Assembly: GCA_963737065.1 (NCBI GenBank)
Contig: CAVTRC010000002.1
Coordinates: 96,001-160,000, forward strand
Reading direction: 5' to 3'
Origin: Candidatus Eremiobacteria bacterium
GTDB taxonomy: Bacteria > Vulcanimicrobiota > Vulcanimicrobiia > Vulcanimicrobiales > Vulcanimicrobiaceae
DNA length: 64,000 bases
In this document: piece after piece, positions 5,651 through 14,104 of the stretch
How the letters are laid out: each line of letters begins with the position of its first letter
Numbering within the stretch: the first letter of the stretch is position 1
The notes under the pieces: model-generated
What the model was told of the DNA's origin: nothing
The model's input: the letters and a program-made list of their open reading frames with translations, nothing else
Database searches by the model: none
Made by a program: the position numbers and the translations under genes

Positions 5651-6792
5651 TCACCGTGAATGCCGAGTTGGGTGTCTACGTGCACCTTCCGTTTTGTCCG
5701 TATATTTGTCCGTACTGTGACTTTGCGAAGTGGCCGATGCGCCGAAGCATCGCATCGCAGTATCTCGAAGCGCTGTACAGCGAAATCGAGGAGCAGCCGA
5801 TCGAAGCGGCAGCGACGCTCTTTCTCGGCGGCGGCACGCCGAACGCGTATCGTGCCGATGAGATCGCGGCATTGCTTGCACGCCTTCGTGCGATCTACGA
5901 CGTCCAAAGCAGCGTGTCGGAAACGACGATCGAAGTGAATCCGGAGCTCATTGCACCCGGCGATTTCGAGCACTACGCCGCAGCCGGAGTCTCGCGCCTG
6001 TCGATCGGCGTCCAATCGTTCGACGCTGCGGAGATCGAGACGCTCGGAAGAAAGCATACGTCCGGACAGATTCGTGCAGCCGTCGAAGGCGCGCGTTCTG
6101 CGGCTATTGCGTCGGTTTCACTCGATCTCATCTTCGCCGTTCCCGGCCAAACGGTCACATCGTGGGATCGCTCGTTGCGCGCGGCGATCGACCTCGGCGT
6201 CGATCACGTCTCGACATACGGACTCACGATTGAGGAAGGGACGCCCTACGAACGGTGGTACGAGCGCCAGCCATCCGCATTTTTCGATGATGCACGCGAA
6301 GCGGATCTCTACGACCGCGCGATCGATGTGCTCGAGCGCGCCGGATACGAACACTACGAGATCAGCAGCTTTGCGAAACCCGGGCATCGCAGTGCGCACA
6401 ACGGCAACTATTGGCGTAACGGCGAATACGCCGGGCTCGGCGTCGGCGCCGCGTCATATCGCAACGGCGAACGATGGGTAAACACGCGCGATCTCAAGGT
6501 CTATCTCGATGCGGCGCTGGCGCGAACGCCGATTCCCGCGCAAAGCGAGCGTCTTCCGGCACATAAAGCGTGCGGAGAAGGACTGATGCTTGCTCTGCGA
6601 ACGGCGCAAGGGGTGGGACTGTGCGAGTTCAAGAAGCGGTACGGCGTTGACGTCGAGGAGCATTACGCTCCGGTAATCGCCCGCTATGGCGACGCGGGAT
6701 TGCTGGAAATCGAAGAAGGCCGAATGCGGTTGACGCGACGCGGAAAATTTCTTGCTAACGACGTGTGCGGAGCCTTTGTAACATTCGAGTAG
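5647..6792 (+). CDS. hemW: Radical SAM heme chaperone HemW (HemN-like)
   Basis: YVHLPFCPYICPYCDF (CxxxCxxC), GGGTP, RLSIGVQSF, YEISSF, HNGNYW. Confidence 0.92.
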   Translation: MITVNAELGVYVHLPFCPYICPYCDFAKWPMRRSIASQYLEALYSEIEEQPIEAAATLFLGGGTPNAYRADEIAALLARLRAIYDVQSSVSETTIEVNPELIAPGDFEHYAAAGVSRLSIGVQSFDAAEIETLGRKHTSGQIRAAVEGARSAAIASVSLDLIFAVPGQTVTSWDRSLRAAIDLGVDHVSTYGLTIEEGTPYERWYERQPSAFFDDAREADLYDRAIDVLERAGYEHYEISSFAKPGHRSAHNGNYWRNGEYAGLGVGAASYRNGERWVNTRDLKVYLDAALARTPIPAQSERLPAHKACGEGLMLALRTAQGVGLCEFKKRYGVDVEEHYAPVIARYGDAGLLEIEEGRMRLTRRGKFLANDVCGAFVTFE

Positions 6793-6827
6793 CGGGCAAC
6801 AACCTTTCCGGCGCGATTTTGCGAACG

Positions 6828-7889
6828 ATGTTTATCGTCGTGTTCGCAGTGACGGGCTTTTTGCTCGGCCGCGAAGCGTACTTAGGCATCCTCTCGCTTC
6901 ACGTCGCGAATGAAGCGCTTCAGATCGCGCTCTCGATTGGTTCGTCGGTGGCCGGTGCGCTTGTCGGCGTGCTGGTGGCGCCATTCGCGCAGAGCTTCTT
7001 CGAAGACGAGCTCATCGTCGCCGAAGGCGCAATCGAACGCCTGTCCCCAGCCGAAGTCGCCGGGGGCGCGATCGGCCTCATCGCGGGGCTCGGCATTTCA
7101 CTGCTCGTGAAGAACATTGCATTCGAGTTCGTAAACTTCGCAGGACGCTCGGGCCATTATCTTGCGATCGTGTTGTACTTGATCGTTGCGGCTTTTTGCG
7201 CCTATCTCGGCGCGCGTGTCGGCGCGAAAATCGGAATGCGGCCGCTCGGCGATCGCGCCGATACGGCGCCCGCTAAAATCGTAGATACGTCCGTGATCAT
7301 CGATGGCCGCATCCTGGAGATCGTCGAGAGCGGATTTTTGGAAGGGACCCTCGTCGTACCGCGTTTCGTGTTGCGCGAACTGCAGACGATTGCCGATTCC
7401 GTCGATCCGCTCAAGCGCACGCGCGGGCGGCGCGGTCTCGAAGTGTTGAGCCGTTTGCAAGAACTGCGCGCGTTAGACATCAGCGAGCGCGATTACAGCG
7501 ATCTGCCGCCCGGAAACGTCGACGCGAAGCTCGTTCGCCTCGCACGCGAGACGAGCGGTAAATTATTGACCAACGATTACAATCTCAATCGTGTCGCAAG
7601 CGTCGAGCGGGTCGACGTGTTGAATATCAACGAACTTTCGAATGCGGTGAAGCCGGTCGTTCTTCCGGGCGAAGAGATGAACGTTCACGTGATTCGCGAG
7701 GGAAAAGAACCGAATCAAGGCGTTGCATATCTCGACGACGGGACGATGATCGTCGTCGAACAAGGGCGCCGACTCATCGGCGAAGAGACCGACGTCGTCG
7801 TCACGAGCGTGTTGCAAACCGTCGCCGGCCGCATGATTTTTGCGCGACCAAAGCCAGGGCCCGTCCACTCAGCGCCGCATGGTACGTAG
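6828..7889 (+). CDS. Membrane-anchored PIN/TRAM domain protein (YacL family); start approximate
   Basis: N-terminal TM helices, KIVDTSVIIDGRI, RGRRGL, TNDYNLN, GKEPNQGVAYLDDGTMIVVE, VTSVLQT; usual position upstream of ispD. Confidence 0.92.
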   Translation: MFIVVFAVTGFLLGREAYLGILSLHVANEALQIALSIGSSVAGALVGVLVAPFAQSFFEDELIVAEGAIERLSPAEVAGGAIGLIAGLGISLLVKNIAFEFVNFAGRSGHYLAIVLYLIVAAFCAYLGARVGAKIGMRPLGDRADTAPAKIVDTSVIIDGRILEIVESGFLEGTLVVPRFVLRELQTIADSVDPLKRTRGRRGLEVLSRLQELRALDISERDYSDLPPGNVDAKLVRLARETSGKLLTNDYNLNRVASVERVDVLNINELSNAVKPVVLPGEEMNVHVIREGKEPNQGVAYLDDGTMIVVEQGRRLIGEETDVVVTSVLQTVAGRMIFARPKPGPVHSAPHGT

Positions 7890-8032
7890 ATGGATTCCTT
7901 GCTCGCCTGCACCGCGCTGCTCACCGGGCACGCATCTGAGGCTTCGCGCACTCTTCCCGCCTTGCGAGGGCGAGGAATGAACGGAATCCGGTGCCATGCA
8001 ACGACCGGCGAACGCCCACATCGGACGGTTCG

Positions 8033-8986
8033 ATGAATTGGGGAGCGATTGTCGTCGCCGCTGGACGCGGTACTCGCTTCGGTGGCCCGAAGCAGTTCGT
8101 CGAGATCGGCGGGCTGCCGATGATCGGCTGGTCGATCCGAACGTTCGCCGCGATGCCCGAGATCGGCGAACTGGTCCTCGTCACCGAGGACGAATGGCTT
8201 GAGCCGATGCGCTCGCTCGCATCGCAACTCGCGCCGGCGCATACACCGGCGATGGTTGAAGGCGGTCCGTCGCGTCACGCGAGCGTACGCAACGGTTTGC
8301 ATGCGTTGTCCGATCGTTGCGGCGGAGTGCTCGTGCATGATGGTGCGCGTCCGCTGGTTCGTGCCGAAGACGTCCGCAAGGGGATGCGCGAAGTACGTGC
8401 CGGGCGTGCAGCGGTGCTCGCCGCGCCGGTCGTCGACACGATCAAGATTGTCGATCCGGCGACAATGCTCGTTCGAAAGACGCTCGATCGCGGTGAGCTG
8501 TGGGCGGCGCAAACGCCCCAATTCTCTATGCGACGTGAGCTTCAGCGCGCGCACATCGAGGCGCAGCGTGCCGGGACCGAAGCGACGGACGACGTGACGC
8601 TGCTCGAAGCAATCGGCATTGAGGTAATGGCCGTTGCGTCGTCGGCCGAGAATTTCAAAGTGACGCATCCGCCGGACGTTGCGCGTGCCGAGACGCTCTT
8701 GCGCGAGCGGCTCGACCACGCGCCCGAAGAAGACGAGGTGTTACTCATCGAAGTCTTTGCAGACGACGCGCTCGTCGAGGCGATCGAGCGTGAGTTGGAA
8801 TCGCGCGGCGCAACGATCGACGCTATCGATCGCGACCTCCCGCGCGGTGCGATCGTCCGCGCCTACGTGTCGTCGAACGCCTTGCGCGGATTCGGTTCGC
8901 GATTCGAAGCGTTTGGCGACGGTACGGCGACGTTCACGACGCGCTTTTCGCATTACGGGGGCCGCGGCGAAGGAGTCCGTGCGTGA
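8033..8986 (+). CDS. ispD: 2-C-methyl-D-erythritol 4-phosphate cytidylyltransferase with an extra ~80-aa C-terminal domain
   Basis: AAGRGTRFGGPKQF, VHDGARP, AQTPQ, TDD, NFKVTHPPD; ORF continues about 90 codons past the normal IspD end. Confidence 0.93.
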   Translation: MNWGAIVVAAGRGTRFGGPKQFVEIGGLPMIGWSIRTFAAMPEIGELVLVTEDEWLEPMRSLASQLAPAHTPAMVEGGPSRHASVRNGLHALSDRCGGVLVHDGARPLVRAEDVRKGMREVRAGRAAVLAAPVVDTIKIVDPATMLVRKTLDRGELWAAQTPQFSMRRELQRAHIEAQRAGTEATDDVTLLEAIGIEVMAVASSAENFKVTHPPDVARAETLLRERLDHAPEEDEVLLIEVFADDALVEAIERELESRGATIDAIDRDLPRGAIVRAYVSSNALRGFGSRFEAFGDGTATFTTRFSHYGGRGEGVRA

Positions 8987-9468
8987 CGAGGGTCGGACAC
9001 GGTTTTGACGCGCACCGCTTCAGCCCCCGACGGCGCCTCGTGCTCGGCGGAGTTGAAGTTCCCCACGATAGCGGACTGCTTGGCCATTCGGATGCCGACG
9101 TCGTCGCCCATGCGGTCTCCGACGCACTTCTCGGCGCTGCCGCTCTCGGCGATCTCGGCGGCCATTTTCCCGACACCGACCCGAAATGGAAGGACGCCGA
9201 CTCGATGGTGCTGCTCGAGGCGTGCATGCAATCCGTCCGCGATGCCGGATACGCCGTTTCGAACGTCGATGCGACGATCGTCGTCGATCGTCCGAAGCTC
9301 GCGCCCTATATCGGAGCGATGCGCGAAAACCTCGCGACGCGTCTCCAATTGCCGCTCGAACGCATTAGCATCAAAGCGAAGACGAGCGAAGGAATGGGGT
9401 ATACGGGAGACGGCACCGGGGTCGCGGCGTATGCGGTCGCCGCTATAGAGAAGAGGGAGCGCGCCTAA
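8983..9468 (+). CDS. ispF: 2-C-methyl-D-erythritol 2,4-cyclodiphosphate synthase
   Basis: RVGHGFDAHRF, LGHSDADV, GDLGGHFPD, IKAKTSEGMG. Confidence 0.96.
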   Translation: MTRVGHGFDAHRFSPRRRLVLGGVEVPHDSGLLGHSDADVVAHAVSDALLGAAALGDLGGHFPDTDPKWKDADSMVLLEACMQSVRDAGYAVSNVDATIVVDRPKLAPYIGAMRENLATRLQLPLERISIKAKTSEGMGYTGDGTGVAAYAVAAIEKRERA

Positions 9469-10019
9469 TGGACGTTTCTCGGGCGCAGTTGATGACGGCG
9501 ATGCAGCGATGGCGTTTTCTCGGAGATTCGCCACCGGATGCAGCGATTCGCTGGATCGACTCGTTCTTAGAGGCGTACGGTGAACGGCTGGCCGGCGTCG
9601 ACGACGCCTATCCGTTCGTCGCTGCGCTGCGAGCGGAGGCGTGTGTGATCCCGGCCCTCGAACTGGAACGGCTCCGTACGCGCAACGTACTGTTCTTTCT
9701 CGATTCCGTAGGCCAGTATATCGACGATCAGCCGGAACTGCGCGCTTTGCCGCTTTCTCAAGACATTCCGGCGATTGCGGCAGAATTCGGCATATCGAAA
9801 GAGGACGCGTTTTATGCCGTACGCATGGCGCTTACGGGAGCCAAAGATGGACCGCCGCTCGAACTGCTTTTTCCGCTGCTGGGCCACGACCGCATGCTCA
9901 TGCGTATCGGGGCGGTGAATTCGCGCTTGCTGCACGGACGTGGCCTCGAACCGATCAAATATGGCCCGGATGGGAAGCCGTTCGAACCGATTCGCTCGAA
10001 GGCGCCCGATGACGTCTGA
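9468..10019 (+). CDS. Stand-alone protein resembling the C-terminal helical anticodon-binding domain of glutamyl-tRNA synthetase
   Basis: VRMALTGAKDGPPLELLFPLLGHDRMLMRI matches the GluRS C-terminal pattern; no HIGH or KMSKS motif; occupies the gltX position. Confidence 0.75.
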   Translation: MDVSRAQLMTAMQRWRFLGDSPPDAAIRWIDSFLEAYGERLAGVDDAYPFVAALRAEACVIPALELERLRTRNVLFFLDSVGQYIDDQPELRALPLSQDIPAIAAEFGISKEDAFYAVRMALTGAKDGPPLELLFPLLGHDRMLMRIGAVNSRLLHGRGLEPIKYGPDGKPFEPIRSKAPDDV

Positions 10020-10695
10020 TCTGCTCGACACGCTTCGTCGCGATCTGAATGCGCCGCTCGAGCGCGATCCCGCAGTCCGTGGTTCACTGGACGTTATTTT
10101 GTCGTATCCCGGGTTTCATGCGATCGTTGCGTATCGACTGTTTCACACGCTGCATCGCGCCGGCATTCCGCTGTTGCCGCGCTGGCTTTCGCACGTCACG
10201 CGCTTTTTCACCGGGATCGAAATTCATCCAGGAGCGACGATCGGCGAAAACGTCTTCATCGATCACGGCATGGGTGTCGTCATCGGTGAGACCGCCGAAG
10301 TGGGCGAGGGGTGCACGATTTACCAAGGCGTGACGCTCGGCGGCACGAGCTTGAAGCGCACGAAGCGCCACCCGACGCTTGGCCAAAATGTCACGGTCGG
10401 GGCAAACGCATGCGTTATCGGCGCGATTTTTATCGGTGACAATGCGCGCGTCGGCAGCGGCTCCGTCGTCGTGCGCGACGTTCCGGCCAATGCGACGGTT
10501 GTCGGTATTCCCGCACACGTGGTCGCGATGGACGGAAAACCGGTGCGCGCCGTGCCTGACCGTCCGCAAGTCGAAATGCCCGATCCGAATGAAACGGCGA
10601 TCAAGGAACTGAACCGCCGTATCGTACAGCTGGAAGATCGCATCGACACCATCGAAGGTAAGGAAGGCGAAGAGCACTGGTCGTGGGTGATTTAA
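10009..10695 (+). CDS. cysE: Serine O-acetyltransferase
   Basis: ERDPA, YPGFHA, TGIEIHPGATIG, FIDHGMGVVIGET, KRHPT and hexapeptide repeats. Confidence 0.96.
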   Translation: MTSDLLDTLRRDLNAPLERDPAVRGSLDVILSYPGFHAIVAYRLFHTLHRAGIPLLPRWLSHVTRFFTGIEIHPGATIGENVFIDHGMGVVIGETAEVGEGCTIYQGVTLGGTSLKRTKRHPTLGQNVTVGANACVIGAIFIGDNARVGSGSVVVRDVPANATVVGIPAHVVAMDGKPVRAVPDRPQVEMPDPNETAIKELNRRIVQLEDRIDTIEGKEGEEHWSWVI

Positions 10696-12125
10696 AGCTT
10701 TACAACACACGAACGCGCACGCTCGAAAAGTTTCACCCGCTCTCGGCGGGTGACGTTCGTATCTATGTCTGTGGACTAACTCCCTCGGCTCAAGCACACC
10801 TCGGCCATGCCCGCTCATTCCTGTTTTTCGATCTGCTCCGCCGCTACTTGACGTATCGCGGCTATCGCGTGATGTACGTGCAAAACGTTACGGATATCGA
10901 CGATCGCAGTATCAACCGCGCGCGCGAAACAGGCGAAGACTGGTACAAAATCGTCTCCGATTACTATACGGAGTTCAAAACTTCGATGCGCGCGCTCGGC
11001 GTCATTGAGCCGGACGAGGAACCATACGCGACAAAATTTATTCCACAAATCGAAGCGATGATTCGCCAGTTGATCGAACGGGGCTACGCCTACGTCGTTG
11101 AAGACGGCATCTACTATCGCGTCAACCGCTTTCCAAATTATGGAAAGCTCAGCAACCGCAACATCGAAGAACTCGAAGCGGGCGCACGCATCGAAATCGG
11201 CGAGCACAAAGACGATCCACTGGACTTCGCGTTGTGGAAGTTCGCAAAGCCGGGCGAACCGAAGTGGCCCTTCGACCCTTACGGTGACGGGCGTCCCGGT
11301 TGGCACATCGAATGTTCGGCGATGTCGCACACGTTGCTCGATCCGCAAGGAAACGGGTTCGATATTCACGGGGGTGGTGCGGACTTGATCTTTCCGCATC
11401 ACGAGAATGAGATCGCGCAGAGCGAACCGCTGATGCTCCATCCACCGATGGCGAGTTTTTGGGTGCACGGCGGATTGCTGAATTTCGAGGGGCGGAAGAT
11501 GTCGAAATCGCTCGGCAATTTCGAGCCGCTCGTGGACCTTCTCGCGCGTCACGATCCGCAAGCGATTCGCTTGGCGTTTTTGACCACGGGCTACAGCAAG
11601 GTGATGAACTTTACGGAAGATTCGCTGCGCGCCTCGTATGCCACGCTTGATAAGTTGAAGCGCGCGTATCGCGGAATGCATCCCGGCGGCGTCGTCATGC
11701 CCGTTCACAACATCGCGAACGGATTGCCGGCACGCGTTGCGGATTTTCTCGACGAAGACATGAATACGGCTGCGGCGCTTGCCGAAGTGCTCGCGTTCAT
11801 CAAAGATGCGCGGCCCAGTGGGCTCGCGGAGTTCGAAACAGCGCTGTGGCTGCTCGGCATCGAACCGGACGGTGCGTGGCTGGTGGAAGAAGTGACGCCT
11901 ATTCCGGTCGATCTGCTCGAACGTTTGCGTGCGGAGCTCGGCGGCGAACTCTCATTCAACGGCGCGACGCCGGAGGACGCCGTCGCGCTCGTCATTGCGC
12001 GGCGCGCATCTGCGCGCGCCGCAAAAGACTGGGGCGCATCCGATCGTCTACGCGACGCACTCGCCCGCTGCGGCATCTCGATCAAGGATTCGAGGGAAGG
12101 CACGACTTGGACCGTCGCGCAGTAA
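10683..12125 (+). CDS. cysS: Cysteine--tRNA ligase
   Basis: HLGH (HIGH-type), NVTDIDD, DFALWK, GRPGWHIECSAM, FPHHENE, KMSKS, DRLRD. Confidence 0.97.
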   Translation: MGDLKLYNTRTRTLEKFHPLSAGDVRIYVCGLTPSAQAHLGHARSFLFFDLLRRYLTYRGYRVMYVQNVTDIDDRSINRARETGEDWYKIVSDYYTEFKTSMRALGVIEPDEEPYATKFIPQIEAMIRQLIERGYAYVVEDGIYYRVNRFPNYGKLSNRNIEELEAGARIEIGEHKDDPLDFALWKFAKPGEPKWPFDPYGDGRPGWHIECSAMSHTLLDPQGNGFDIHGGGADLIFPHHENEIAQSEPLMLHPPMASFWVHGGLLNFEGRKMSKSLGNFEPLVDLLARHDPQAIRLAFLTTGYSKVMNFTEDSLRASYATLDKLKRAYRGMHPGGVVMPVHNIANGLPARVADFLDEDMNTAAALAEVLAFIKDARPSGLAEFETALWLLGIEPDGAWLVEEVTPIPVDLLERLRAELGGELSFNGATPEDAVALVIARRASARAAKDWGASDRLRDALARCGISIKDSREGTTWTVAQ

Positions 12126-12127
12126 AC

Positions 12128-12520
12128 GGACCCGCGCGCGCTTTACGTATGGGGAGGCGCAGCGCAGAGTGCTGTTAGCCGAGTGCTGTTAAACGAAAGG
12201 GGTCTCCAAAGTGCGCAGCACGTTCGGTGAAGGGGACCCACGCGCTTTGCGTGTGGGGGCGCGCAGCGCGCAGCGCGGAGTGCTGTTAAACGAAAGGGGT
12301 CTCCAAAGTGCGCAGCACGTTCGGTGAAGGGGACCCACGCGCTTTGCGTGTGGGGGCGCGCAGCGCGCAGCGCGGAGTGCTGTTAAACGAAAGGGGTCCC
12401 CAAAGTGCGCAGCACGTTCGGTGAAGGGGATCCACGCGCTTTGCGTGTGGGGGCGCGCAGCGCGCAGCGCGGAGTGCTGTTAAACGAAAGGGATCCCCAA
12501 AGTGCGCAGCACTTTGGGGC
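12128..12520. repeat. Tandem 97-bp palindromic (REP/BIME-like) repeat: 3 full units, a partial fourth and a degenerate lead-in
   Basis: GAGTGCTGTTAAACGAAAGGG starts at 12181, 12278, 12375 and 12472; each unit contains two hairpins. Confidence 0.95.
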
Positions 12521-12528
12521 AAGGCGAC

Positions 12529-13326
12529 ATGGACCGTAGCAAGGTGAAACCGCGCCGTCAGCCGCGTCTCGATTTCGACGACGTGATGTACGGCGTGCAC
12601 GTTGTCGAAGAAGCATTGTCGGCCGGTGAGACGCTGCGTGCGATTCACATCTCCGACGAGCGCAAGCGCGATCCTTTGCTGCGCAAAATCATCGGTGAAG
12701 CAAAGCAGCGCGATATTCGCGTGCGATTCGAAGACCGCGCGTTCTTTACGCAGCTGCCGTTCAAGGCGCATCAAGGGATCATCGCGATTGCGCCGCCGTT
12801 CCAGTACGCGTCGTTGGACGACGTGATGAGTAAGCGAAAACCGACGAGCGCACTGTTCGTGTTGCTCGATCACCTTACCGATCCGCACAACGTGGGCGCG
12901 ATCGTTCGCAGCGCGGAGTGTTTCGGTGCCGATGCGGTAATTTTGCCCGAACGGCGCTCGGCGGGGATCAACGCAACCGTTCGCAAAGCCGCCGCCGGCG
13001 CAGCCCAACATATTGCAATCGTGCGCGTTTCGAATATCAACGACGCGATTCGTCAAATCAAGAAGGCGGGCGTTTGGGTTGCCGGCGCCCATGCCGGCGA
13101 AAGTTCCGTCGACGTGAGCGAGGCGGATTTCAATCGCGACATCGCGCTCGTTATTGGTGCAGAGGGCGAGGGACTCGCGCAGCTCGTGCGGCGTGAGTGC
13201 GACTACTTGGTACGCATTCCGATGCGTGGGGTCATTGAATCGTTGAATGCCTCGGTTGCTGCCGGCGTGTTAATGTACGAAGTCGTCCGACAAAGATTGC
13301 AGCAAGCCGCATCAGTCCACAGCTAA
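12529..13326 (+). CDS. rlmB: 23S rRNA Gm2251 2'-O-methyltransferase RlmB (TrmH family)
   Basis: YGVHVVEEAL, HQG, LDHLTDPHNVGAIVRSA, GAEGEG, IPMRG, ESLNASVA. Confidence 0.93.
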   Translation: MDRSKVKPRRQPRLDFDDVMYGVHVVEEALSAGETLRAIHISDERKRDPLLRKIIGEAKQRDIRVRFEDRAFFTQLPFKAHQGIIAIAPPFQYASLDDVMSKRKPTSALFVLLDHLTDPHNVGAIVRSAECFGADAVILPERRSAGINATVRKAAAGAAQHIAIVRVSNINDAIRQIKKAGVWVAGAHAGESSVDVSEADFNRDIALVIGAEGEGLAQLVRRECDYLVRIPMRGVIESLNASVAAGVLMYEVVRQRLQQAASVHS

Positions 13327-13352
13327 TCCCCAACATTATGCTTGCGTTATCC

Positions 13353-13381
13353 TTGACGCGAGAAGGACCCCCTCCTATAAT
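13353..13381 (+). promoter_or_regulatory. Sigma70-type promoter of sigH
   Basis: TTGACG-N17-TATAAT. Confidence 0.75.
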
Positions 13382-13456
13382 CACGTGGATGTGTCGCGTT
13401 CGACGGACTGCGGCCCGCGTGTTTCGGCACAGCGACTACCACGAGGCGTTAATTAC

Positions 13457-14104
13457 ATGGCTATGACCCATCCTGTTCCGGATGGATTGGAGTACAACGA
13501 GAGAGCCGACGAAGATCTCGTTGCCATCGCGAAATCGGGCGACAACCTGGCGATGGAGTACCTGCTCAACAAGTACAAAAACTTCGTTCGAATCAAGGCC
13601 AAGAGCTACTTCTTGATCGGCGCGGACCGTGAGGACATCATTCAAGAAGGAATGATTGGCCTCTATAAAGCCGTGCGTGACTTCAAAGCGGATAAGCTTT
13701 CAAGCTTCCGTGCGTTTGCTGAGCTATGCATCACCCGCCAGATCATTACGGCGATTAAGACGGCGACGCGCCAGAAGCACATTCCGCTTAACCAATACAT
13801 CTCACTGAACAAGCCGATCTACGACGAGGACAGCGAGCGCACGCTTCTCGACGTGATGGCCTCGCAAAAAACCTCGGATCCCGAGGAACTGGTCGTCACG
13901 CAAGAAGTCTCCGACGATATCCGCCAGCGCATCCGCCAAAATCTCTCCGAGCTGGAATCGCAGGTCTTGGAATCATACCTGGAAGGCAAAAGCTACCAAG
14001 AGATGGCGCGCGATCTCGGCCGCCACGTGAAATCGATCGACAACGCGCTGCAGCGCGTGAAACGCAAGATCGAAAAGAACCTCGCGGAGTTCGAGTTCCA
14101 GTAA
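13457..14104 (+). CDS. sigH: RNA polymerase sigma factor SigH (Spo0H type)
   Basis: KAKSYFLIGADREDIIQEGMIGLYKA, FAELCITRQIITAIKTATRQKHIPLN, KSIDNALQRVKRK. Confidence 0.95.
   Translation: MAMTHPVPDGLEYNERADEDLVAIAKSGDNLAMEYLLNKYKNFVRIKAKSYFLIGADREDIIQEGMIGLYKAVRDFKADKLSSFRAFAELCITRQIITAIKTATRQKHIPLNQYISLNKPIYDEDSERTLLDVMASQKTSDPEELVVTQEVSDDIRQRIRQNLSELESQVLESYLEGKSYQEMARDLGRHVKSIDNALQRVKRKIEKNLAEFEFQ

Follow-up and report, generated by a model that had tools for sequence, protein, structure and literature searches.

A free-standing anticodon-binding domain between ispF and cysE in Candidatus Eremiobacteria, very probably the surviving part of a glutamyl-tRNA synthetase

The locus and the encoded domain

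The window analyzed here is a stretch of 64,000 nucleotides (nt) from a Candidatus Eremiobacteria genome (GenBank assembly GCA_963737065.1, contig CAVTRC010000002.1, positions 96,001 to 160,000 of the forward strand). Judging from source names, the organism belongs to Ca. Aquilonibacter / Baltobacteraceae, of the phylum called Eremiobacterota or Vulcanimicrobiota. In this study, we focused on a short forward-strand gene (9468..10019; ATG start, 183 amino acids plus stop) that is predicted to encode the anticodon-binding domain (ABD) of a glutamyl-tRNA synthetase (GluRS) and no catalytic domain. The gene stands in a row of genes of the same strand, namely ispD (7991..8986; PF01128, E 1.7e-56), ispF (8983..9468; PF02542, E 1.7e-65), the ABD gene, cysE (10009..10695; Hexapep and SATase_N matches) and cysS (10683..12125; PF01406, E 4e-109). 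The likely start of cysE is the ATG at 10009, and the CysE proteins of relatives align from its residue 1-8. As an earlier note on this DNA had described, the open reading frame (ORF) is intact and overlaps both neighbours: the A of its ATG is also the last base of the ispF stop codon (TAA, 9466-9468), and at the other end its final 11 nt run into cysE, counted from the likely start of that gene. A Shine-Dalgarno-like GAGGGAG (9453..9459, forward strand) is found 8 nt before the ATG, within the 3' end of ispF, and its context is kept in the closest relatives (G005, G003 and G002). In many other genera, spacers part the ORF from ispF and cysE. A read-through fusion of IspF and the ABD was considered and rejected, since the frames differ with the TAA/ATG overlap here and spacers are present in other genera. 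No T-box or other RNA element was detected in or near the ORF by an Rfam scan (E ≤ 0.1) of four loci (L004, L061, L062 and L022), in which the sole match was one tRNA in L022.

The ORF matches a single Pfam family, PF19269 (Anticodon_2), over residues 15-148 and profile positions 9-138 of 141 (E 2.5e-8; 34.9 bits against a cut-off of 23.6). This profile search was the one that the earlier note had proposed. In a six-frame search of the genome, the ORF scores 35.1 bits with the same profile. The NCBIfam model of the whole enzyme, TIGR00464 (gltX), is matched only at positions 351-464 of 470 (22.9 bits against a cut-off of 289.95), and the class I catalytic domain with HIGH and KMSKS, said earlier to be absent, gave no PF00749 match in the ORF. 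The conserved motif of domain 5 is present (R119, T123, G124, L131, L137, L138, G139, R142 and R146), and the C-terminal GluRS motif recognized before (VRMALTG...GPPL...LLG...RI) was confirmed at residues 118-147. The canonical anticodon-loop motif (R119, T123, G124, G128, PPL, LLG, R142 and R146) occupies residues 119-146 (9822..9905, forward strand).

A search of the PDB with the single sequence gave weak matches only (E at least 0.034). A profile of 53 homologues matched 22 distinct PDB sequences, all of them GluRS; the best was that of Mycobacterium tuberculosis (2ja2, 6.1e-16), and Thermus thermophilus (1g59/1j09, 5.1e-13) aligns to the profile over residues 344-467 of its chain. The AlphaFold2 model built from the 53-homologue alignment has nine helices, a predicted local distance difference test score (pLDDT) of 93.9 and a predicted template modelling score (pTM) of 0.88; in the C-terminal tail (residues 153-178), pLDDT is 80-84. 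When this model was compared with the PDB by Foldseek, ranks 1-41 were all bacterial GluRS (query TM up to 0.71) and the scores collapsed beyond them. The protein is without the first helix of domain 4. These results indicate that the ORF is the gene of a folded, non-catalytic protein, predicted to consist of the alpha-helical ABD of GluRS alone.

A word-indexed search returned 1079 homologues of 100-321 amino acids, and the best 120 of these 1079 are 175-198 amino acids long and 71-100% identical. Their database names are 'hypothetical protein', 'Anticodon binding domain' and 'glutamyl/glutaminyl-tRNA synthetase'. An exhaustive search of 1.84 billion representatives gave 51 clusters at E ≤ 1e-3, and the protein family is therefore narrow; some of the 51 are full-length GluRS of 438-501 amino acids whose C-terminal part is at most 64% identical (P0122 among them). 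Of the 348 family genomes, 233 have an ABD match (E ≤ 1e-8); these take in 119 of the 186 genomes of high quality and 67 of the 78 genera. These tallies, like those of PF00749 matches and of single genera given below, include some genomes flagged as unpublished, which the sequence-level analyses exclude. With 1079 homologues and 233 of 348 family genomes, the occurrence of the ABD is far beyond chance. A 146-amino acid ORF on a 1.84-Mb contig of another lineage (P0168) also consists of a GluRS ABD only. It is M. tuberculosis-like, shares 30% identity with the protein of the window, and could either be an independent case of a free ABD or come from a gltX that is split or frameshifted.

The slot in relatives, decay of the catalytic half and constraint on the domain

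The genome (3.08 Mb, 95.3% complete) has one PF00749 match, which lies on another contig (C1:1840443-1841399, 347.9 bits) and belongs to a 500-amino acid GluRS bearing its own ABD (PF19269, 101.4 bits). The region of this sole GluRS gene, outside the window, is G000:C1:1840443-1841855 (locus L001:1498-2997). The second and last PF19269 match in the genome is the ORF of the window. The earlier note had asked whether other gltX genes in the genome are full length, and the single GluRS has both catalytic domain and ABD; its statement that no catalytic remnant lies upstream also held, as ispF ends where the ORF starts. Neither a glutaminyl-tRNA synthetase (GlnRS), nor Glu-Q-RS, nor a GluRS core lacking an ABD was found in the 95.3%-complete genome, and exactly one PF00749 match was found in 22 of 25 sampled family genomes. 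The earlier note had also offered the ORF as half of a split GluRS whose catalytic core is encoded separately, an arrangement with an engineered precedent in Escherichia coli (Dubois et al. 2009, Biochemistry 48:6012, to go by its title). Because the one catalytic GluRS carries its own ABD and neither an ABD-less core nor Glu-Q-RS is present, this explanation is refuted for the assembled genome and keeps a negligible chance of being right.

GatB is present in the genome, and the tRNA genes include Gln-CUG, Gln-UUG, Glu-CUC and two Glu-UUC. We distinguished three types of GluRS: type A, the slot paralogue of gltX; type B, a second GluRS that accompanies an intact type A; and type C, which is of the Pseudomonas type and is the only GluRS of this genome. 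A tree of 31 full-length GluRS resolved the clades A, B and C with support of 98-100. Type C stands on a stem of 1.5 substitutions per site, is 34.5-38.7% identical to type B and, in this 31-sequence sample, occurs only in genomes with a free ABD. Its best PDB match is the GluRS of Pseudomonas aeruginosa (5tgt, 648 bits, E 1.3e-193), followed by Moraxella (9ymm), Chlamydia (9y81) and then T. thermophilus, and it is 55-62% identical to the GluRS of named genomes from other phyla, among them many Pseudomonas as well as Sphingomonadales, Rhodospirillales, Terriglobia and Moraxellaceae. In this unrooted comparison, type C is probably a xenologue acquired by transfer. PMC12088422 describes a dimeric 'noncanonical' GluRS with the signature PaAsp15, Gln184, Trp341, Phe/Tyr439 and C-terminal LGG.SKK..K..EK. 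All 21 type C sequences compared have D14, Q183, W342 and Y440, and the type C protein of this genome ends in LGAPSKK....W.K, a partial match to the subfamily motif. By these signature residues, the only GluRS of the genome is a member of the P. aeruginosa-type class Ib subfamily, and it is predicted to be dimeric. Since GlnRS is lacking and GatB is present, type C must be non-discriminating here. The list of holders of the dimeric subfamily, in the section of PMC12088422 that gives it, is without this phylum.

The proteins of the window were mapped on the loci of relatives by tblastn. In the three genomes of the sister family f2 mapped with the slot on one contig, ispF and cysE enclose a full-length gltX that joins catalytic domain and ABD in a single frame. 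Seven f3 genomes with conserved context show this arrangement too, as do the family members G018 and G019. The remaining sampled family genomes have the ABD alone in the slot. The ispD-ispF-[slot]-cysE-cysS order recognized in the earlier note is therefore real, and relatives hold a full-length gltX at the position of the ABD gene.

Four states of the slot were observed. Intact type A together with type B is found in genera g13, g55, g70, g30 and g14; a full-length in-frame type A together with type C in g74, g86 and g87; a free ABD together with type C in most genera, including that of the window; and type C alone in g43 and g85. Most Baltobacteraceae have type C and no type B. The catalytic motif KLSKR is intact in 16/16 type A proteins from B-bearing genomes and absent or altered in 11/11 full-length type A proteins from C-bearing genomes, where it reads, among other forms, KLSRQ, KLSSA, KLEHD, KLEQA, KGSGA or ALAHR and is deleted in some copies. 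The HVGG and EDTD motifs are likewise eroded in the decayed copies. Neither an intact type A with type C nor a decayed type A with type B was found among the genomes examined. All 11 decayed type A proteins are without a Cys-rich stretch of about 43 residues (C.C...C region) that is inserted in the catalytic domain; it is missing too from genus g14 (G019 and G220), whose type A keeps KLSKR alongside type B.

In a tree of the ABDs (quick search, SH-aLRT support only), copies from B-bearing genomes are basal and all copies from C-bearing genomes form one clade (support 91), which splits into 20 free ABDs and a g74/g86/g87 group. The free ABD of G340 nests among the decayed full-length copies of its own genus (support 90). 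In G362, 4262 nt separate the ABD from ispF, whereas in G340 the gap is 3425 nt; the difference of 837 nt is the size of a catalytic domain. The ABD of G340 retains the first eight residues of the full-length protein of its relatives, fused in frame at the same point where the protein of the window begins, and the lost piece takes in the first helix of domain 4. We infer that the N-terminus of the window's protein (MD..RA.L..AMQR) is the product of the same kind of in-frame deletion. Sequence comparison indicates that the catalytic half is removed by in-frame deletion at least twice independently and that the ABD stays each time.

The strength of selection was estimated from the ratio of nonsynonymous to synonymous substitution rates (dN/dS), as pairwise Nei-Gojobori (NG86) medians; dS was high (0.6-1.8), some saturated pairs were dropped and related pairs are non-independent. 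For the free ABD, dN/dS is 0.109 within the genus (15 pairs), with 0.079 for IspF and 0.058 for CysE, and 0.204 across the family, with 0.182 for IspF and 0.236 for CysE. These values of 0.11-0.20 answer a question of the earlier note in that the free ABD does not evolve neutrally. Where type A accompanies type B, the catalytic domain is the more constrained part (dN/dS of 0.150 vs 0.373 for the ABD in family f1, and 0.150 vs 0.353 in family f3). Where it accompanies type C, the pattern is reversed (0.516 for the catalytic domain and 0.245 for the ABD in all 11 copies; 0.536 and 0.309 in g87 only), and constraint therefore appears to have moved from the catalytic half to the ABD once type C was present. 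By these rates, the ABD is under stronger purifying selection than it is inside the active enzyme. Identity reaches 90% or more at 79 of 183 positions in a set of 35 sequences from at least 25 genera, made up of 21 free ABDs, 11 decayed and 3 intact copies. The ORF is thus very probably the surviving ABD half of the type A gltX of the ispF-cysE slot, held by purifying selection; of the possibilities that the earlier note had raised, the domesticated remnant is the one favoured by this descent and this selection.

Candidate roles of the free domain

By the 1g59 alignment, R119 corresponds to Arg435 of T. thermophilus GluRS, G128 to Thr444 and position 40 (R40 in the window's protein, codon 9585..9587, forward strand) to Arg358. 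In T. thermophilus, Arg358 reads C36 (PMC12088422, PMC2978374). Residues R119, G124, G128, R142 and R146 are at least 90% conserved, and position 123 is T in 17/20 free ABDs. Position 128 is Gly in 33/33 type A sequences and Ser in 19/19 of types B and C. Position 40 is always Arg in types B and C and is Glu (2), Gly (3) or His (7) in full-length type A (12/12 non-Arg); the free ABDs have Arg (6), Gln (6), Ser (2) and Lys, Asn, His, Ala, Gly and Leu once each. In Helicobacter pylori GluRS2, the exchanges E334R/G417T switched the preference from tRNA(Gln) to tRNA(Glu) (PMC2978374), and the G417T mutation suggests that Gly417 stands at the position of T. thermophilus Thr444. Gly128 combined with a non-Arg residue at position 40 in full-length type A is therefore a GluRS2-like signature.

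Two further parts are conserved in this lineage. In residues 61-100 (9648..9767, forward strand; IPALELERLR...VLFFLD...QY.D.Q.ELR.L.L), 22 of 40 positions are at least 90% identical over the 35 sequences, and the segment is not conserved in the slot GluRS of f3. The C-terminal tail at residues 153-178 (9924..10001, forward strand; LLHGRGLEPI.YGPDGKPFEPI) has 13 of 28 such positions, and ordinary GluRS are without it. The tail is found in the free ABDs, in full-length G018 and in P0122; it is diverged in G027 and G029 and absent in f3, G025, G026, G019 and G016. Both the segment and the tail predate the loss of catalysis.

The kept anticodon motif with its Gly, the conserved surface and the tail led us to regard a trans-acting accessory factor, an option that the earlier note had raised for tRNA-Glu/Gln binding, as the most likely role. 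As judged from sequence, the protein most likely works without catalysis, by binding tRNA(Gln/Glu) or a partner protein. Our fuller proposal, put forward tentatively and with somewhat less than an even chance of being correct as a whole, is that a domesticated type A ABD assists the indirect Gln-tRNA(Gln) route in trans, as an accessory factor. The arrival of the Pseudomonas-type GluRS would have been followed by decay or deletion of the catalytic half of type A, with the ABD kept. The ABD would bind the anticodon arm of tRNA(Gln), and possibly of tRNA(Glu), through the retained anticodon-loop motif, and the lineage-specific surface (61-100) and the tail would serve for contact with another protein, for example type C GluRS or GatCAB. 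A predicted complex of type C GluRS and the ABD scored 0.00 against a mark of 0.32, which speaks neither for nor against binding.

Several findings weigh against an accessory role in tRNA(Gln) charging. The best PDB match of type A is Thermotoga maritima GluRS1 (338 bits) and that of type B is T. maritima GluRS2 (365 bits), which, by PDB entry titles, is the enzyme crystallised in the glutamine transamidosome. These matches point type A to GluRS1 and type B to GluRS2, and either ancestral paralogue may have served tRNA(Gln). Position 40 appears to vary freely, which leaves one of the two known discriminating contacts unconstrained. By the PDB profile alignment, M. tuberculosis GluRS has Arg and Ser at the two positions; we take this enzyme to be non-discriminating, and the two-residue signature is therefore a weak predictor. 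The free ABDs are acidic, with an isoelectric point (pI) of 4.5-5.3 and a net charge of -6 to -14, and this acidity does not favour RNA binding by the ABD alone. The ABD match is split into two pieces in 11/233 genomes. These may be frameshifts, and since 9/11 of the assemblies have 10 contigs or fewer, indel errors of long-read assembly would fit.

Loss of the gene weighs in the same direction. An ABD match is present in 4/91 genomes of genus g43 (87/91 without) and in 0/11 genomes of g85. In two g85 genomes ispF abuts cysE, and in three g43 genomes the slot is 220-740 nt long without trace of an ABD, two of them carrying unrelated ORFs; the most sensitive profile search (hmmsearch --max) of the g43 spacers for a decayed ABD gave a best E of 1.1. 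Each of five ABD-less genomes has one GluRS-family catalytic domain, GatB and no GlnRS. No compensatory change was found in their type C proteins at the positions equivalent to Arg358 and Thr444, which hold the same Arg and Ser. Because these genomes keep GatB and a type C unchanged at those positions, type C can serve tRNA(Gln) there without the ABD. The ABD is thus an accessory gene, helpful and not essential, that two genera have lost. In the slot of g43 genomes, G123 (L062) has an ORF for a putative secreted protein of about 230 amino acids, G084 (L063) one for a product of about 160 amino acids, and G100 only a 220-nt spacer; directly in front of cysE, a conserved TTAAACTG.TGCAGATGGGCAA is common to G100 and G123.

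It is also possible, if unlikely, that the ABD is a regulatory or scaffolding subunit that binds protein and no tRNA, similar to HisZ, with a partner outside aminoacylation such as an adjacently encoded enzyme of cysteine or isoprenoid metabolism, which it would reach through the 61-100 surface and the tail. The acidity of the free ABD, the freedom at the Arg358-equivalent position, the high conservation of segments that ordinary GluRS ABDs do not conserve (22/40 in 61-100 and 13/28 in the tail) and, in the genus of the window, the translational coupling to ispF and cysE would all be consistent with such a subunit. However, conservation of at least 90% at R119, G124, G128, R142 and R146 would be unexpected if tRNA binding had been lost, even though some of these residues may be structural, and a partnership with CysE is not universal, since cysE is missing beside the ABD in G354 and G335. 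A more specific and improbable explanation is that the ABD is a trans-complementing specificity module that accepts the first domain-4 helix of the dimeric type C GluRS, the hybrid site, with its GluRS2-type anticodon pocket, improving the charging of tRNA(Gln). Type C has the residues of the P. aeruginosa subfamily (D14, Q183, W342, Y440 and LG..SKK), whose members form dimers via intermolecular three-helix bundles so that the ABD acts on the tRNA of the partner (PMC12088422). The two independent deletions share one endpoint, immediately behind the first helix of domain 4. Type C has Arg and Ser at the discriminating positions, and the free ABD has Gly128. On the other hand, the five ABD-less genomes manage with a type C unchanged at those positions, with GatB and without GlnRS; the tail and the 61-100 segment predate type C, being found in the B-bearing G018, G210 and G252; and the ABD is predicted to fold confidently without a donated helix. 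A detachable module for tRNA specificity or hand-off, plugged into type C GluRS or bridging its product to GatCAB, has a similarly slim prospect. If it were true, it would be a case of natural aminoacyl-tRNA synthetase (aaRS) specificity supplied by a separate polypeptide, with a GluRS2-type pocket serving a foreign GluRS of discriminating signature, and it would provide living evidence for the 'mobile GluRS C-domain' model of modular evolution.

Slimmer still is the chance that the ABD is a functionless remnant, kept since its deletion would disturb translational coupling or the expression of cysE-cysS. The clean loss of the ABD in g85 and its replacement in g43, the overlap with both neighbours in the genus of the window and the split matches in 11/233 genomes could be understood in this way. 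However, the constraint on its amino acids equals that on its essential neighbours (0.109 vs 0.079 and 0.058) and is stronger than in the active enzyme (0.35), and 79/183 positions keep an identity of 90% or more over at least 25 genera. Coupling is not general, since spacers to ispF and cysE are present in many genera, and no Rfam element was found in the scanned region. Moreover, two independent in-frame deletions kept exactly this domain with the original start.

Related systems and neighbouring genes

Searches of the full text of main articles found no description of a natural free-standing GluRS ABD. In the part of PMC5388404 that treats them, free-standing aaRS anticodon-binding domains are mentioned only in general terms. 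The protein of the window shares its fold and the R-x-A-x-T-G...P-L...LLG..R motif with the ABD of bacterial GluRS (domains 4-5; T. thermophilus 1J09/1N78 and M. tuberculosis 2JA2). Unlike that domain, it has no attached catalytic domain, is without the first domain-4 helix, is acidic, and adds the conserved 61-100 segment and a C-terminal tail of about 25 amino acids.

The GluRS2 enzymes of H. pylori and Acidithiobacillus are second, tRNA(Gln)-specific GluRS (PMC2978374, PMC2777447). The ancestor of the ABD was likewise a second GluRS, in a genome without GlnRS and with GatCAB, and, as in H. pylori GluRS2, type A has Gly at the Gly417 position and, in 12/12 full-length copies, a non-Arg residue at the Glu334/Arg358 position. 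Unlike GluRS2, the protein of the window is without a catalytic domain and has Arg at position 40, and GluRS2 does not stand out among the best PDB matches. The two ABDs of the P. aeruginosa GluRS dimer each read the tRNA bound to the opposite protomer (PMC12088422); this enzyme (5TGT/8VC5) is therefore similar in that an ABD reads the anticodon of a tRNA on another polypeptide. There, however, the ABD is part of a homodimeric enzyme, whereas here it is a separate gene of type A descent.

Natural single halves of GluRS with their own function are represented by Glu-Q-RS/YadB, which is the catalytic half and modifies tRNA(Asp); the protein of the window is the opposite, non-catalytic half. PMC3927822 cites YadB as an isolated N-terminal domain, gives, in the part that treats domain mobility, only N-domains as precedent, and proposes that the N- and C-domains of GluRS were independently acquired. 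The finding of a free C-domain bears on that proposal.

Among further comparisons, a free GluRS C-terminal domain was reportedly engineered as the distal domain of E. coli GluRS, there acting in trans on the core. Unlike that construct with its C-truncated core, this genome has no truncated core. HisZ is a HisRS paralogue without aminoacylation activity that serves as a regulatory subunit of ATP phosphoribosyltransferase. It resembles the protein of the window as an aaRS-derived non-catalytic protein that is kept, here for a presumed new role, and differs from it in keeping the catalytic-domain fold, whereas here only the ABD is kept.

Free-standing pieces of aaRS (YadB/Glu-Q-RS, HisZ, AlaX and YbaK) have repeatedly proved to have functions of their own. 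One bacterial family shows all stages here, from an active second GluRS through a catalytically dead full-length protein and a free ABD (twice) to complete loss. This decay series, which follows the displacement of two native GluRS by a Pseudomonas-type enzyme, is a clean natural experiment for asking which half of a synthetase has a function beyond catalysis. It also provides a protein that is small and folds well, and for which tRNA(Gln), tRNA(Glu), type C GluRS and GatCAB can be tested as candidate ligands.

The slot neighbourhood has some features of its own. IspD carries a C-terminal extension of about 90 amino acids (8720-8986, residues ~245-331) whose match to EFG_C is marginal (28.1 bits against a cut-off of 27.9). 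The earlier note had counted two redeployed fragments of translation proteins in this operon; the case for the IspD part is weak and independent of the ABD. The extension is present in genus g1 and in G024, G018, G022, G021, G210, G311, G304, G340 and G317, and many other family members are without it. Since it occurs both in genomes with a full-length gltX in the slot (G018 and G210) and in ABD-less genomes (G311 and G304), it is not linked to truncation to the ABD. In genus g87 (loci L064-L068 and L076-L078), about 3.4 kb of other genes lie between ispF and the slot gene and the order is broken, and in G354 and G335 cysE is missing beside the slot gene. Upstream, the operon is flanked by a gene for a PIN-TRAM membrane protein (6765-7889). 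The ORFs downstream (12502-14104) presumably encode a TrmH-family methyltransferase-like and a sigma-70-family-like protein, as judged by eye. We take the flanking order to be that of the gltX-cysES region of Bacillus, kept here in a phylum distant from Firmicutes.

Genomes G025-G029 of the sister family f2 show, as their third PF00749 match, a shorter one that covers about 280 of 314 profile positions in open frames of 317-335 amino acids; it looks like Glu-Q-RS/YadB and is without counterpart in the sampled Baltobacteraceae. In the genome of the window, tRNA-Gln(CUG) and tRNA-Glu(CUC) genes stand in tandem, 1 nt apart (G000:C1:513593-513744; locus L099:94-245). A BLAST search of 10 further genomes of the family, of which one belongs to the same genus, did not recover this tRNA-Gln(CUG). 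The idea that it travels with the ABD was rejected, since it was matched in 0/5 ABD-less and 0/5 ABD-bearing genomes, its own genome being matched. The tRNA-Gln(UUG) was matched in 5/5 ABD-less genomes and is 96-100% conserved.

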